A stretch of DNA of 64,000 nucleotides from Bdellovibrionota bacterium. GTDB taxonomy: Bacteria; Bdellovibrionota_C; UBA2361; JAFLCA01. Shown in pieces: positions 46,101 through 54,086 of the stretch. The stretch covers positions 1,855,933 to 1,919,932 of the forward strand of contig CP129486.1 in NCBI GenBank assembly GCA_030584005.1, in the 5' to 3' direction. Numbering within the stretch: the stretch's first letter is position 1; each line of letters opens with the position of its first letter. The position numbers and the translations under genes are program-made. A model generated the notes under the pieces. That model saw only the letters and a list, made by a program, of their open reading frames with translations. It did no database searches and was not told the origin of the DNA.

Positions 46101-46272
46101 CTTCTCTATCGGCGTGGTGATCTTTTTTGGGGTTACGATTGCAACTCTGTATACGCTCTTCGTCGTGCCAGTGGCCTATAGTTTGCTGGCACGCGGCACT
46201 GGCTCACCGGGAGCGGTGGCCAGGCAGCTTGCCGCAGAAGAGCAAAGTGGCGGGGCCTCCCCTACCGCCTGA
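43150..46272 (+). CDS. RND efflux permease (AcrB/AcrD/AcrF family)
   Basis: LPLREYPDIDPP, AIGIVVDDAIVVLEN, GIATKNAILIVEFA, RLRPILMTA; ATGA overlap with the MFP gene. Confidence 0.95.
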   Translation: MRLSDLSVTRPVFASVLSLLLIVFGLGSFSRLPLREYPDIDPPVVSIETRYRGAAAAVVETRITELIEERISGVEGIRFIQSSSEDGRSSVNVEFSTDRDIDGAANDIRDRVFSILDELPDEADPPEIRKVDSNEDVILWLNLGSDRMSVPELTDYADRYLVDRFSVLDGVARVRIGGEQRYAMRIWIDRSELAARNLTIDDVEVALRRENVELPAGTIESIEKQFTVRVERAFRTVDDFRRMAVARGEQGYLVRLGDIARVERGTEEERNLFRGNGIPMVGIGIVKQSTANTIAVARAAKAEMTRLNPLLPEGMQIRESYDSSVFIEGAIHEVYISLAITILLVIGVIYLFLGDVRATLVPAVAVPVSVVAAFIVLYALGLSVNILTLLALVLAIGIVVDDAIVVLENVHRRIEEHGESPLVAAFHGTREVAFAVIATTLVLMAVFVPIAFLEGDIGRLFSEFSITLSAAVAFSSLVALSLSPMLASKLLGRRGASRGKVALLVDRFFLGLRGRYQALLERVLLKPRSMILSFGLSIPLSLILFVYLPSEYTPKEDRGAFFVQVNGPEGASFNYMKHYMAEIERRLLPMLETHGLQRLLVRAPRTFGSSQSFNTGIVVITLKDWGGRASAWEVMAEVSRRLADLPGVRAFPVMRQGFGGGIQKPVQFVIGGGTYEELASWRDILIEKINSDNPGLLGIDWDYKETKPQIQVRIDYDRAADLGVSVESIGRTLESMLGSRRVTTYIEDGEEYDVLIEGERDLQRTAGAVENMYVRSARTQSLIPLSNLVTFEERADASSLNRYNRVRAVTLEANLDSGLALGGALSFLERLVDEHLPDEVIVDYKGQSQDFKAFGASIVFTFLLGLCVVFLVLAAQFESYVHPLIIMVTVPLAMVGGLLGLFVSGQTLNLYSQVALIILVGIATKNAILIVEFANQLRDRGHDFARALVDASALRLRPILMTAITAIVGAVPLLLASGPGSETRFSIGVVIFFGVTIATLYTLFVVPVAYSLLARGTGSPGAVARQLAAEEQSGGASPTA

Positions 46273-46657
46273 TGCCGAGTTCGCTCAAAATCCGAAGGAG
46301 GTCATCGTGCACGATCGGCTTAACAAGATACGCGCCGCATCCCGCATCAAAGGCTTCCTGGAGATTCTTGCCCTCGGAGAGCGCGGTTGTCATGATCACC
46401 TTTGCTGCTTTTCCTCCGCTGATTTTTCGCGTGGACTCCTCGTTGCGCAGTTCTCGAAGCACTTCGAGACCATTCATGAAGGGCATCATGATGTCCAGGC
46501 ACACAAGGTGGTAGGGAGTACCGCTGTCGAGTCCCTTGGTCAGGAGCTCCATAGCTTCGCGCCCATTACTTGCGATATCACACTGTCCATAGCTGGAAAG
46601 CAGCCGAGCAAGTAGAGCGCGGGACACTATATCATCTTCGACGATCAGGATTCTCAT
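46262..46657 (-). CDS. Single-domain response regulator (CheY-like)
   Basis: MRILIVEDD, CLDIMMP..NGLEVL, VIMTTA, YLVKP. Confidence 0.9.
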   Translation of the reverse strand: MRILIVEDDIVSRALLARLLSSYGQCDIASNGREAMELLTKGLDSGTPYHLVCLDIMMPFMNGLEVLRELRNEESTRKISGGKAAKVIMTTALSEGKNLQEAFDAGCGAYLVKPIVHDDLLRILSELGIRR

Positions 46658-49586: not shown

Positions 49587-49614
49587 TTGCTAGGATTGCA
49601 CCCAGTGCTACAAT
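49587..49614 (+). promoter_or_regulatory. Candidate sigma70 promoter for the sigma-LAGLIDADG gene
   Basis: TTGCTA-N16-TACAAT with extended -10 TG, 48 bp before ATG 49663. Confidence 0.45.
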
Positions 49615-49662
49615 TCGGCGCATCAATGCGATGCCGCTTGGCGTATATGTAGCAGCAGTATC

Positions 49663-52110
49663 ATGCCCATTAGTTCTAGCACTCACACCAGCACAGCGTC
49701 CCTCCCCGCATTTTCATTGGTTACCGCGGCCCGACCGGAAGGTGCACCGATGGATGGAAGTGAGGTGCTGGCGCGAGCTGAGCTCGTTTCGAGTTTGCGG
49801 GACGAGTACGGGGAGCAGGTTCGCGCCATGCTGAGTGAGCGACCTCAGTTAATGCCGCACCTTACCTTTCTGGAAACCCGGATTTTCAATTCTGTTGCCG
49901 ACGAACTGCAGTCGGCCCACCCCCCGCTAGACGTATCCCAGCGCCTCACTGAAACCGTCGTGGAGGTGCGCAATACGTACTCAGTTGATCAGGACACTGC
50001 TGCACAAGATCTGATCAAACGGTTCGGGACCTTTATTCGCTCAATGGCGTCTGCCCGTCTGAACGACTTCCATCAGGTTGAAGACGTAAGCCAAGAGATC
50101 TTGCTTCGACTGCTCTCGTCCCTGCCACGCTACAATCCCGAACGAGGGGCTCTCATTACATGGGTGCGGACGATCGCCGGCCGGTATGTGACGGATGTGC
50201 TTAGGCGAGAACGTGTCCGAAGCGGTGTACAGGCACATGCTGAGGTGGATGAGGCGACTTCGGCGTCCGACAGTATAGGATCGATTGAACAGCGGGAACA
50301 GCTGAGGAATCTCGTTGCACGCATAGGGCAGCTCCCCGAAAAGGAGCGCGATGTGCTCAAGCTAGTGTATTTGCGGGGGTACACTTTGCGCCAAGCGGCT
50401 AGTGCGCTCGGCATTGAACTAGGAACGTGCAAATCACGCTTAAGCCATGGGCTTGCACATTTGCGCGAGCTTGTCGACGCGGGCGATGTGACTGCCCCCT
50501 TGGCAGAAAGGGAGGCAGGCCACGCGGGTCGGACGGCTGGCAGAGTGGCGCTCAACAATAATTCAGCCCGCTCCTTGCACGGTATCACCGTCGAGTATCA
50601 CGCGGGCACACCCTTCTTGTTGATTCAACTTGCATCAACAGGCAGAAGAATCGCTGCAACGGGAACAGATCCACGGGAGATAATTACTCAGCTCTATCAG
50701 CGAGGGATGATAACGCGTGCAGGGCTGAGAGCCGCATTCGACGAGAGCGCCCAGTCCTTGAAGGGAACGCACAAGTGTGCTGCCGAGCGATCGGCAGCAC
50801 TGTTACTCAGCAGCCTCGAGGGCTGCTGCAAGGACAGGGACGCTCGCTACCTCGCTCAATATGGAACTCCTTATGGGCTGGTTATTCAAGATGCGCGTGG
50901 AGAGGTCCTTCGCCTTCTCCCACCTGCTTCGCCGCAACGATTAGTGCATCTCCAGTTGGACTGCCGTTATGCCCTTGAAACGATTGAACGCAACTACCGC
51001 GCTTCCGGAAGAGAGAAGGAGATTGAACTGACAAGAAATGAGGTTCAGAGCGCTCTACGTGTGCTGGAGGTCGTCTTTGAATGGAGGAGGCGAGGTTATG
51101 GAAATCAAGAGGTGGCGGAGCGTGTCGCCCAGGAGTGCGGACAAGTTCTGAGCTCCGACAGAATCTCGCAATGGGTGGCAGGACACAAACTCCCAGAGCC
51201 GATAGCACTTGTTCTCTCGAACTCGAGTCGAAGACAATCGACCTTCAGGGTCCCGCTGCGCGCTTCGCTTGACCTCTCATATTTGTTAGGAGTGCAGGTG
51301 GCCACAACGCACTTTGCCACCAGCTATTGTGATTTCGGTCTAAGTCATGAAGACATGCAGGTGATGAATCGCTGTCGCCAAGCGCTGAGCCGGCTTGGAC
51401 TCGAGCCGACCTTTAGAAAGGCCGATGATCCATTTTCGGGTGAGAAGCATACGCTGCGGGTAAGATCCTTGGACTTATGCGGTTTACTGTTCGAGCAAAC
51501 CGATGGATTTACCCGACTGCCGTGGGCTTACCTCGTGGGGATGAGGGAGAAGGTCGCATTTCTTGGCGGAATGACCGACGCCGGCGGGGTGGTGCTCAAG
51601 GACCGCCTGCGCTTTGTGAAGGAAGGAGCAGGAAATATCTTTGAAGAGCTGGCATTGCTACTGGTGGATGTGGGAGTGCTTTCAACTGTACAGCGAGGGC
51701 CGAGAGCCAGTCTCAGTATAGCTTCGGGCTCGGAACTGAGATCCTTGCGAGCATTGATAGGACCGCGCTACGGGTCGTTCGACCGCAAGCTCAATGCAGC
51801 ATGCATCGATGGTGGCAAGTATCACCCCTCACTAAGGGAATATCGCGCGTATGAACGTGCAGTGACAGCCGTCGGGAGGTCCCTCAGTGACGTATCTGAG
51901 TATCTCAGAGTACAGGAGAAGGTCGCTCTTGATCGGGAGGTGCTGCGAAGATGGCTGAACGGCGTTCAACCCCTGGCTGCCCGACGCCTGGCCAGAATTG
52001 AGGCGCTTAGGGCGCATTACCCTGACATAACTGAATGTCATTCATTGGCTCACGCCGGGGTACCGCGGAACCGTATTTTTCCGATCGTGCTGGGCCGTGG
52101 CGGGAGCTGA
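49663..52110 (+). CDS. ECF-type sigma factor fused to HTH and degenerate LAGLIDADG domains
   Basis: Sigma2 VEDVSQEILLRL..YNPERGALITWVRTIA; sigma4 LPEKERDVLKLVYLRGYTLRQAASALGIELGTCKSRL; LAGLIDADG-like LSYLLGVQVATT and AFLGGMTDAGG. Confidence 0.8.
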   Translation: MPISSSTHTSTASLPAFSLVTAARPEGAPMDGSEVLARAELVSSLRDEYGEQVRAMLSERPQLMPHLTFLETRIFNSVADELQSAHPPLDVSQRLTETVVEVRNTYSVDQDTAAQDLIKRFGTFIRSMASARLNDFHQVEDVSQEILLRLLSSLPRYNPERGALITWVRTIAGRYVTDVLRRERVRSGVQAHAEVDEATSASDSIGSIEQREQLRNLVARIGQLPEKERDVLKLVYLRGYTLRQAASALGIELGTCKSRLSHGLAHLRELVDAGDVTAPLAEREAGHAGRTAGRVALNNNSARSLHGITVEYHAGTPFLLIQLASTGRRIAATGTDPREIITQLYQRGMITRAGLRAAFDESAQSLKGTHKCAAERSAALLLSSLEGCCKDRDARYLAQYGTPYGLVIQDARGEVLRLLPPASPQRLVHLQLDCRYALETIERNYRASGREKEIELTRNEVQSALRVLEVVFEWRRRGYGNQEVAERVAQECGQVLSSDRISQWVAGHKLPEPIALVLSNSSRRQSTFRVPLRASLDLSYLLGVQVATTHFATSYCDFGLSHEDMQVMNRCRQALSRLGLEPTFRKADDPFSGEKHTLRVRSLDLCGLLFEQTDGFTRLPWAYLVGMREKVAFLGGMTDAGGVVLKDRLRFVKEGAGNIFEELALLLVDVGVLSTVQRGPRASLSIASGSELRSLRALIGPRYGSFDRKLNAACIDGGKYHPSLREYRAYERAVTAVGRSLSDVSEYLRVQEKVALDREVLRRWLNGVQPLAARRLARIEALRAHYPDITECHSLAHAGVPRNRIFPIVLGRGGS

Positions 52111-52181
52111 GAACTGCCGCTACTTGCCAGGGGCAGCATACTCATCCATAATTGCGGGTTTTCCGCACGCCCCCAGGTCAC

Positions 52182-54086
52182 ATGCAGCAGCCCGCAACCG
52201 ACACCTTTCGCCTCCGTTTCTTTGGCGGTTTCGCCTCGCAGAGACGCGCACTTTTAGCGGCCCGAGAGCTAGCCGCGCCTGCACTGCATTCATCGATTCA
52301 TCAACAACTTAACGCATTGGGAGAGGACAGCGCAGTCGACCTCAGGAGGCTTGATTCACGATGGAAGCTCTTTTGGCGTTGTGTGCTGGCGGTCAGAGAG
52401 CTTGTGCTCGCCTCTATACTTTGGAACGCGTTGAGCGCGATCGTCGTGCTGTTTGCTGTTCTGGCTACCCGTAGAATCGTGGCCCAGGAGGATTCGCTGA
52501 GTACCGCTTTCGTACTGGCGATAGGTTATCTTGCGGCAAAGGTTGTCTACGCAGCGATCGACTACTTTGACTGGCTACGGCGGGCGCAGGTCAATCGAGG
52601 GGTGCAGACGTTCCTATTCCGGGTCGTCAACGCCAAGGTCGTGCGAATTGACCGCGCCCGCGCCCATGAGTTCACAACTGGAAACATCAAGACACTGATT
52701 GGTTCCGACGTTGAGAGTGTTGAAGATTTCATAAGCGCAGCGCTGGCCCAGTGGATCCCCACCCTTGTTACTCTCGCCATACTTGGACCTTCGATGTACT
52801 GGTTTGGCGGGACGCTCGGTGTCATAGCGCTAGCCCTGGCCTTGCTTTCCCTTCCCGTTGCGATGCTCGGCGCGCACTACATAGAGCGCTACCAGAGCCG
52901 CGCCCAGAAGGAGCAGGACCGGCTGACCACTCTGGTCGGCGAATGGGTCAAGAACATCCGACTTGTCCGATTCCTGGGCTGGCAGCGTGCTATTGAGGAT
53001 GAGATTGCACGGCAGATGCGCTCCTTCACCTGGCAATACGCCTTCCGACATACAATCGCCTGTGTCGTATACGGCGTGTCCTGGTCATGGTGGATGGTTC
53101 CAGTACTCGGCATGTTGGCGGCCGCCTACCTGCAGGGGATCGAGCTAAGCGTGGCCTCGGTATTCTCCGTAATCTGGCTCCTTGATCATCTTATGAACTA
53201 TGTGCAGCACCTCCCCTACTCGCTGTCCTTGTATGGGCAGGCTGGCGCGGGTGCCGACCGAGTGCTGGCGCTGCTCGGCGCTCCTGAAGTGACGGACGCT
53301 CTTGTGGACTCAAACGGCTCAGCCGAAGCGCCTCACGGGGTCCCTCAAAGGGTCCATTTTCGGGATGTCAGCCTGGAGCTTGGCGGCCGCAAGGTCCTAC
53401 AAGCCGTGAACGTATGTATCGAGCTCCACTCCCGCACCGCGATTGTGGGGAGTGTGGGCAGCGGCAAATCGCTCCTTCTAGAGCTATTGGTGGGTGAAAA
53501 AGCGCCCAGCTCCGGCAGTATCGAGGTTGAGTATGAAGGCGGTCAGCGCTTCTCCTTATGGCGGAGGGACGTCTATGAGTCGCTGCGCTCTCAAATTGCT
53601 TATACACCGGGGCAGCCTTTCCTCTCCAATGCCCTGATGCGACTCAATATCGACCTTGGGGGATCGGGAGAGCAGGCATCCATAGCATACGCGGCCGAGC
53701 GCGCGCAGCTTGTTCCTGACATTCAACAGCTGACACGGGGATATGATGAGGAGGTCGGCGAAACGGGAATCAACCTATCGGGTGGACAGCGGCAGCGTGT
53801 CAGTTTAGCCCGTGCGTTCTTTTCAGCGCGTCCATTTTTTGTTCTCGATGATCCGTTGAGCGCCGTCGATCCGGCCACTGAAGCGGCGCTTATGGACAAT
53901 TTGATCGATTCGGCGAAGGGCATTGTGATGGTGTCGCATCGGCTGCAGGAGCTTAGTCGCTGTGATCGAGTGCTGGTAATGGATGGGGGCTCCTTTGTCG
54001 AGGATGGAAATCCCCTGGAGCTTGCGTCCGACAGGAGGTCTCGTTTTTCGGCCTTCCTTCGAGCGGTGGAGGAACATGGGCACTGA
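52182..54086 (+). CDS. ABC transporter half (TMD+NBD), ABCC/MRP N-half-like
   Basis: GSVGSGKS, ETGINLSGGQRQRVSLARA, VLDDPLSAVD. Confidence 0.88.
   Translation: MQQPATDTFRLRFFGGFASQRRALLAARELAAPALHSSIHQQLNALGEDSAVDLRRLDSRWKLFWRCVLAVRELVLASILWNALSAIVVLFAVLATRRIVAQEDSLSTAFVLAIGYLAAKVVYAAIDYFDWLRRAQVNRGVQTFLFRVVNAKVVRIDRARAHEFTTGNIKTLIGSDVESVEDFISAALAQWIPTLVTLAILGPSMYWFGGTLGVIALALALLSLPVAMLGAHYIERYQSRAQKEQDRLTTLVGEWVKNIRLVRFLGWQRAIEDEIARQMRSFTWQYAFRHTIACVVYGVSWSWWMVPVLGMLAAAYLQGIELSVASVFSVIWLLDHLMNYVQHLPYSLSLYGQAGAGADRVLALLGAPEVTDALVDSNGSAEAPHGVPQRVHFRDVSLELGGRKVLQAVNVCIELHSRTAIVGSVGSGKSLLLELLVGEKAPSSGSIEVEYEGGQRFSLWRRDVYESLRSQIAYTPGQPFLSNALMRLNIDLGGSGEQASIAYAAERAQLVPDIQQLTRGYDEEVGETGINLSGGQRQRVSLARAFFSARPFFVLDDPLSAVDPATEAALMDNLIDSAKGIVMVSHRLQELSRCDRVLVMDGGSFVEDGNPLELASDRRSRFSAFLRAVEEHGH

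Follow-up and report, generated by a model that had tools for sequence, protein, structure and literature searches.

As a rule, a sigma factor is a minimal reader of promoters under the control of separate partner proteins, and a typical extracytoplasmic function (ECF) sigma factor has the gene of its cognate anti-sigma factor adjacent to its own, an association that is not obligatory. The gene described here lies in a 64,000-nucleotide stretch of the genome of a Bdellovibrionota bacterium (assembly GCA_030584005.1, contig CP129486.1, positions 1,855,933 to 1,919,932 of the forward strand; this whole stretch is called the window below). It joins in one polypeptide an ECF sigma factor and a large C-terminal module predicted to consist of a nuclease-dead LAGLIDADG fold with helix-turn-helix (HTH) units on both sides. 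An N-terminal ECF sigma factor followed by a dead LAGLIDADG module is a new arrangement. No published description of a sigma plus dead-LAGLIDADG architecture was found in a literature search, the literature on LAGLIDADG together with ECF led to WhiA or to Bacillus and Streptomyces genomes and to nothing closer, and a LAGLIDADG-type ECF extension was not found in PMC7671368.

Three groups of described proteins are relevant for comparison. The first is WhiA (DUF199), known from Streptomyces and Thermotoga (PDB 3hyi and 3hyj), which is a monomeric double LAGLIDADG protein carrying an HTH of the sigma region-4 type and which represents a domesticated, non-cutting LAGLIDADG derivative (PMC3384342). 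At promoters it works jointly with a sigma factor, and direct binding to sigma-WhiG has also been described (PMC3240954). In the cryo-electron microscopy structure of the RNAP-sigmaA-WhiB-WhiA complex (RNAP, RNA polymerase), the dead LAGLIDADG domain serves as a protein scaffold, connected to sigma-A region 4 by way of WhiB, and the sequence recognised by the sigma-4-like HTH, GACAC, is located upstream of the −35 element (PMC10243135). The second group is formed by sigma factors that, as found here, combine an ECF core and a long C-terminal extension without an adjoining anti-sigma gene: ECF41, ECF56 and ECF294 (SnoaL-like extension), ECF42 (tetratricopeptide repeats, TPR) and ECF238 (Cys-rich) (PMC7826278, PMC3426412). 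The third is that of the homing endonucleases I-DmoI, I-Tsp061I, PI-PfuI and PI-SceI, which share with the module the two-domain fold, a saddle of two alpha-beta domains held together by the two LAGLIDADG helices, and the conserved glycines in both of these helices.

The gene is a single uninterrupted open reading frame (ORF) of 815 codons (Table 1), and its product is designated here the window protein (P0001). Judged by the domain criteria for ECF (group 4) sigma-70 factors, residues 108-272 constitute a genuine ECF sigma factor. Regions 2 and 4 were recognised by Pfam well above cutoff (PF04542, 48.8 bits with a cutoff of 24; PF04545, 43.1 with 24.1; PF08281, 42.9 with 25.7) at the positions proposed in a preliminary description of the locus made from the sequence alone (residues 117-184 and 215-269). 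They are separated by a short linker running from residue 184 to residue 215, and region 3 was not found by Pfam in the window protein (no PF04539 match). The same segment scores 83.7 bits against the NCBIfam sigma70-ECF superfamily profile TIGR02937 (cutoff 42.9). The acidic extension that precedes the sigma core is unrelated to region 1.1 and has no family match in Pfam or NCBIfam. Its length is 78 or 107 residues, depending on which of two start codons is used: a good ribosome-binding site is lacking at the annotated ATG (49663), while the in-frame ATG at 49750 (Met30, 87 nt further downstream) is preceded by GGAAGG, a better Shine-Dalgarno sequence. C-terminal to sigma region 4 there remain 543 residues, for which the preliminary estimate had been about 550.

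The continuity of the frame was confirmed in a second strain. The independent Logan assembly of sequencing run SRR10807626 (L005) has an uninterrupted ORF of identical length (815 amino acids) that differs from the window gene by 31 substitutions and no indels. Given those substitutions, it represents another strain rather than a second copy of the same data; over 16 kb the strains share 99.3% identity. The codon changes (18 synonymous and 12 non-synonymous) are all found within codons 423-809, and this proportion, as judged from the comparison between strains, points to coding selection on the module. The genome that contains the window was assembled as a single 2.28-Mb contig. It is thus highly improbable that the apparent fusion is an artefact in which two genes were joined by an assembly error or a frameshift, a reservation that the preliminary description had expressed with regard to assembly errors and that is answered by the intact, indel-free ORF of the second assembly.

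Residues ~290-815 form, according to structure prediction, a double-LAGLIDADG fold with HTHs on both sides. The AlphaFold model of this segment was built from a six-sequence alignment and has a mean predicted local distance difference test score (pLDDT) of 79.9, and 434 of its 526 residues reach 70 or more; the prediction from the single sequence was useless (pLDDT 36). When the model was compared to the PDB with Foldseek, all of the top 50 matches were LAGLIDADG proteins. I-DmoI aligns over the whole enzyme (template modelling score, TM, 0.64-0.69; E ~6e-6) and WhiA has an E-value of 2.7e-5, the other matches including PI-SceI, the TliVMA intein endonuclease, I-Tsp061I and PI-PfuI. Matches of the model in a viral structure library were likewise inteins and homing endonucleases. 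At the sequence level the relationship is distant: phmmer found no match of the module among PDB sequences, and PF14528 (LAGLIDADG_3), searched with the module alone, remains below threshold (20.4 versus 22.5 bits, in two stretches). A profile of the 47 relatives identified by an exhaustive HMMER search of 1.84 billion representative proteins matches the PI-PfuI intein endonuclease domain with E 7e-8. With a profile restricted to the core, PI-PfuI was matched (3e-7), I-DmoI was matched across both motifs (2.6e-3), and PI-PkoII and PI-SceI were also found. The likeness to LAGLIDADG proteins exceeds chance because these PI-PfuI and I-DmoI profile matches are accompanied by a Foldseek list in which the top 50 entries are all of this kind.

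The two LAGLIDADG motifs are located where they had been proposed, motif 1 (LSYLLGVQVATT) beginning at residue 538 (nt 51274) and motif 2 (AFLGGMTDAGG) at residue 632 (nt 51556). The two stretches earlier read as HTHs fall on three-helix units of the model, at residues 481-522 and 724-765. The first, HTH1, resembles sigma region 4 in an hhalign comparison (probability 84%, E 8e-6), and relatives match HTH_23, HTH_28 and Sigma70_r4_2 at its position. HTH2 falls within residues 701-815, the most basic stretch of the protein with a net charge of +8. Relatives match HTH_23, HTH_33 and Sigma70_r4_2 at this second position, while HTH2 itself bears little similarity to sigma region 4 (probability 11%) and shows a generic HTH pattern only. 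The domain that opens the module is common to its closest free-standing relatives. The architecture of the preliminary description, an ECF sigma factor followed by HTH, dead LAGLIDADG and HTH, therefore holds by Pfam, TIGR02937 and the model, and AlphaFold and Foldseek agree in assigning a LAGLIDADG fold to the C-terminal part.

Table 1. Features of the sigma fusion gene and its upstream region. Coordinates are nucleotide positions in the window; residue numbers count from the annotated start codon.
Feature	Coordinates	Strand	Basis
Promoter-like site of sigma-70 type, TTGCTA-16-TACAAT, extended −10 TG	49587..49614	+	consensus scan
Whole gene: ECF sigma + HTH / dead-LAGLIDADG / HTH module	49663..52110	+	ORF; same ORF in second assembly
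N-terminal extension, residues 1-107 (78 residues if Met30 is the start)	49663..49983	+	acidic, net charge −6
Sigma region 2, residues 117-184	50011..50214	+	PF04542 E 6e-13; TIGR02937 E 1e-23
Sigma region 4, residues 215-269	50305..50469	+	PF08281 E 3.7e-11; PF04545 E 2.9e-11
Linker from sigma to module, residues ~273-305, low confidence, probably flexible	50479..50577	+	residues 290-305 pLDDT <50; no homologue aligns
Module N-terminal domain, residues 306-476: two beta-hairpins, helical bundle, long helical hairpin	50578..51090	+	model, alignment
HTH1, residues 481-522, sigma region-4 / HTH_23-like, W-x-x-G-x-x-x-P end	51103..51228	+	model helices, hhalign
LAGLIDADG-like domain 1, residues 536-612, motif 1 SYLLGVQVATT	51268..51498	+	profile, model, Foldseek
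Conserved connector TRLPWAYL (613-626) and LAGLIDADG-like domain 2 (627-700), motif 2 AFLGGMTDAGG	51499..51762	+	PF14528, PI-PfuI profile, model
HTH2, residues 724-765, ends W-L-N-G-V-Q-P	51832..51957	+	model; HTH matches of relatives
C-terminal three-helix unit, residues 771-811, kept in closest subfamily	51973..52095	+	alignment, model

The acidic residues that catalyse cleavage in LAGLIDADG endonucleases are replaced. In profile alignments to I-DmoI and PI-PfuI, I-DmoI D21 corresponds to Thr548 and E117 to Gly641, as expected from the earlier remark that acids are absent at the ends of both motifs. This is a property of the family, since LAGLIDADG position 8 is non-acidic in both motifs of all 47 representatives. 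The helix-packing glycines (G543 and G636) are conserved, as is the family signature "PWEHL ... ER.AFL.GFFD..G". The absence of an acid at both positions in all 47 representatives indicates that the whole module family is, as read from its sequences, a domesticated, non-cutting derivative with a DNA-binding or scaffold role. The fold itself is that of homing endonucleases, and the nearest structures are those of intron- or intein-encoded enzymes, which could suggest an active or recently active selfish element, either a homing endonuclease or an intein remnant, at the 3′ end of the sigma gene. Beyond the lost acids, the module differs from such enzymes by the attached HTHs and sigma factor and by a context without intron, intein or mobile element: a Hint/intein domain was not found by Pfam, the GC content is even across the gene (0.53-0.59), two scans of viral contigs yielded no family member, and the locus is syntenic in the second strain. 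The captured homing element of the preliminary description is consequently disfavoured, and we regard it as very improbable.

WhiA is the nearest characterised analogue, as had been suggested from the sequence; the module nevertheless stands outside the WhiA family. The window protein has no WhiA Pfam match, the core-only profile of the relatives matches WhiA (3hyj) weakly (E 0.22), and a faint PF14527 match was seen in one module relative only (P0005, E 0.0074). WhiA is a protein of about 300-330 amino acids with an N-terminal LAGLIDADG part and a single C-terminal HTH, whereas the module has ~526 amino acids, HTHs on both sides, an additional N-terminal domain of ~190 residues and a further three-helix end. 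The module is found in Gram-negative-type and archaeal lineages and WhiA in Gram-positives. In addition, the module of the window protein is covalently joined to its sigma factor, which WhiA reaches through WhiB.

Word-indexed homologue searches returned only the cluster of the query itself or P0008, and it was the exhaustive HMMER search that revealed the family. In the non-redundant set of modules (n=87), 81 are free-standing proteins. The closest relatives of the window module (P0003-P0006 and L014-L016) belong to this majority, have 534-586 amino acids and align with 30-35% identity to residues ~305-815, so that the window gene corresponds to an ECF sigma factor plus one entire free-standing protein. 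Among 124 species genomes of the window's phylum that were searched, 31 contain the module, usually as ORFs of 313-650 amino acids and sometimes as tandem paralogues; there is one copy only in the genome of the window. All publicly named members are annotated "hypothetical protein" and come from metagenome-assembled genomes labelled Bdellovibrionales, Planctomycetota and Altiarchaeota. No NCBIfam family covers the module, the weak matches being exclusively to intein-bearing archaeal proteins.

The six remaining members of the set (6/87) are fused to a sigma factor, which is the outcome of the architecture search that had been proposed earlier: a free-standing family with repeated sigma fusion in both orders. 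The window protein is the sole one with the sigma factor, of the ECF type, at the N-terminus. In the five others the same dead-LAGLIDADG and HTH module is followed by a complete sigma-70-family domain that is RpoD/RpoS-like, FliA/WhiG-like or generic. L055 and L056 are paralogues from one genome of the same taxonomic order as the window's (TIGR02937 8e-12 and 6.6e-9; FliA/WhiG 1e-12), P0007 and P0044 have C-terminal sigma matches of 4e-21 and 1e-10, respectively, and P0016 ends with regions 2, 3 and 4 of RpoD/RpoS-like type (8e-54). A module-core tree places the window protein in a clade with eight unfused proteins (Shimodaira-Hasegawa-like approximate likelihood ratio test, SH-aLRT, 99), and the C-terminal fusions are scattered elsewhere, outside this clade. 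The differences in order, sigma class and tree position indicate at least three independent fusions, involving three sigma classes and either order, as far as the sequences allow them to be traced. This recurrence is the strongest clue in the sequence data that the job of the module is tied to sigma factors or to RNA polymerase, and the module therefore probably works with RNA polymerase at promoters.

The genome with the two module-then-sigma paralogues (G119; an 850-amino acid frame for L055 at G119:C48 and a 790-amino acid frame for L056 at G119:C247) also encodes the free-standing protein that is closest to the module of the window (L028 = L014).

A different origin would be a recent and essentially neutral fusion, in which two neighbouring genes lost the stop codon and spacer between them and the two halves kept their separate jobs. 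The arrangement is indeed confined to one species, with two strains 99.3% identical, the linker is of low complexity and not conserved, and the closest relatives of the module are all unfused. An accident of this type is made unlikely by the independent fusions to other sigma classes. Furthermore, no fetched locus has adjoining genes for a sigma factor and a free-standing module that could represent the precursor, and there is the single module copy in the 2.28-Mb genome. Taken together we consider a neutral fusion clearly unlikely, if less so than a selfish element or an artefact.

We favour the view that the window protein is a sigma factor and an activator in one chain, in which a WhiA-like promoter-reading module has been fused to an ECF sigma factor. 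We assign to this reading a probability of roughly 45%, somewhat short of even odds. The N-terminal ECF part would bind core RNA polymerase and recognise the −35 and −10 elements; an additional DNA motif close to the promoter would be read by the HTHs, perhaps with the LAGLIDADG saddle taking part; and the dead endonuclease scaffold might pack against the sigma factor or RNA polymerase. The fusion would thereby confine the sigma factor to few promoters with a long composite recognition site, and a separate activator or anti-sigma partner would become unnecessary. A promoter-reading role is favoured because of the analogy to WhiA and because a mostly autonomous module has repeatedly been fused on either side of sigma factors. 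That the module binds DNA and sits at the promoter, and which genes it targets, is what we infer from these comparisons; the adjoining pair of ATP-binding cassette (ABC) exporter genes is the obvious candidate target.

Several observations weigh against a one-chain sigma factor and activator. The N-terminal-ECF order is found in one species, in two strains ~99.3% identical, which leaves little evolutionary time for it to have been put to the test by selection. The LAGLIDADG region has a net charge of 0, and its saddle may not bind DNA at all. The AlphaFold model covers the module, the sigma half being outside it, and a contact between the two is thus out of its view. No DNA target motif from the upstream region of the gene recurs genome-wide, the number of 12-mers that this region shares with the rest of the genome (64, with ~70 expected) being at chance level. 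Finally, no sigma gene was found near the free-standing relatives in the fetched flanks and their neighbourhood is not conserved, their neighbours being unrelated genes (flagellins, or DUF1800/DUF1501 genes).

The main rival to the promoter-reading role is that the module is a built-in, anti-sigma-like extension that folds back on regions 2 and 4 and keeps the protein inactive until it is released by a signal or a DNA site, the mode of action of the SnoaL-like (ECF41/56) and TPR (ECF42) extensions. Both ideas had been put forward in the preliminary description. C-terminal extensions are the second most common mode of ECF regulation and typically occur without an anti-sigma gene (PMC7826278), and no anti-sigma-like gene was found beside the sigma fusion gene. 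WhiA makes direct contact with sigma-WhiG and inhibits WhiG-dependent transcription in vitro (PMC3240954), and in the window protein a probably flexible linker of ~30 residues lies between sigma factor and module. The extension of the window protein exceeds the 50-amino acid criterion used for ECF extensions, and with ~540 residues it is a multi-domain, homing-endonuclease-derived structure of DNA-binding type. No SnoaL-like, TPR, Cys-rich, DUF1835 or transmembrane type was found in it by Pfam, and there is no LAGLIDADG type among the 19 ECF groups with extensions in the main text of PMC7826278. The known extension types track particular ECF groups (PMC7826278), which is a poor fit with a module that is mostly independent (81/87) and occurs fused to either side of three sigma classes. 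Unlike ECF extensions, the same module is also attached to the N-terminal side of non-ECF sigma factors. An anti-sigma-like function is on these grounds unlikely, though it deserves to be taken more seriously than a neutral fusion.

If the promoter-reading role is extended to the whole family, the modules could represent an undescribed class of WhiA-like transcription factors outside the Gram-positives, in which the dead scaffold would dock on sigma factor or RNA polymerase and the fusions would be sigma-activator chimeras acting at long composite promoters. This generalisation is tentative and, on balance, rather doubtful. If true, its archaeal members would imply sigma-type promoter-recognition parts in organisms without bacterial RNA polymerase. 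The fusions could serve as a "Rosetta stone", predicting that sigma factors or RNA polymerase are the working partners of the ~80 free-standing "hypothetical proteins" encoded by Bdellovibrio-like bacteria, Planctomycetota and Altiarchaeota. A sigma factor with a large built-in module that reads sequence and descends from a homing endonuclease would be a new route to promoter specificity or to self-regulation. It would also extend beyond Gram-positive bacteria the story of WhiA, in which an invasive endonuclease was domesticated into a transcription regulator, and it might offer a compact natural scaffold to engineer orthogonal promoters with long sites.

The gene order around the sigma fusion is common to both assemblies: an RND (resistance-nodulation-division) efflux system, two periplasmic binding proteins, the sigma fusion, two ABC exporters and a transporter of the major facilitator superfamily (MFS). 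The exporter pair starts ~40-70 nt downstream of the fusion gene and there is no terminator between them. Upstream of the gene, the best site of the sigma-70 type (Table 1) is a weak match, and sites of this kind are no more numerous than expected from shuffled sequence. No unfused ortholog of the sigma half above 30% identity was found in 12 related genomes. The 16-mer GCTACAATTCGGCGCA (49607-49622), which overlaps the predicted −10 element, is found once more in the genome (C1:2229773, minus strand), where ~0.3 occurrences are expected by chance.

Comparison of the two strains revealed that all 53 differences in the neighbourhood shared with L005 are concentrated in one 2.5-kb tract (50663-53162) that takes in the module half of the fusion gene and reaches ~1 kb into the ABC exporter gene. 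The flanking sequence is identical between the strains over 2 kb upstream and 4 kb downstream. On sequence grounds this cluster looks like a recombination tract between strains.

Some additional features of the family were noted. Diverged module paralogues are arranged as tandem pairs, head to tail, at L061 (G003:C113) and L033 (G123:C5). The members L054, L057, L058 and L059, from the genomes of family f9, form a deep and well-supported subclade and have three HTH-like repeats ('F.LY..G.S...I..LTG......I.....P') ahead of the LAGLIDADG core. A link to defence systems was considered and rejected: the PADLOC match to MzaA arises through the sigma tail of P0016 only and the module itself is not matched. 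The closest named free-standing relative, MCB0329081.1 (L014 2686-4457), is encoded directly downstream of two flagellin genes; the presence of these neighbours alongside the FliA/WhiG-like sigma factors of some fused relatives may be a coincidence. Gene calling in the second assembly gave a small stand-alone response-regulator receiver gene (131 amino acids; L005 4599-4994) that lies between the genes of the RND pump and those of the binding proteins and corresponds to ~46261-46656 of the window, on the minus strand.

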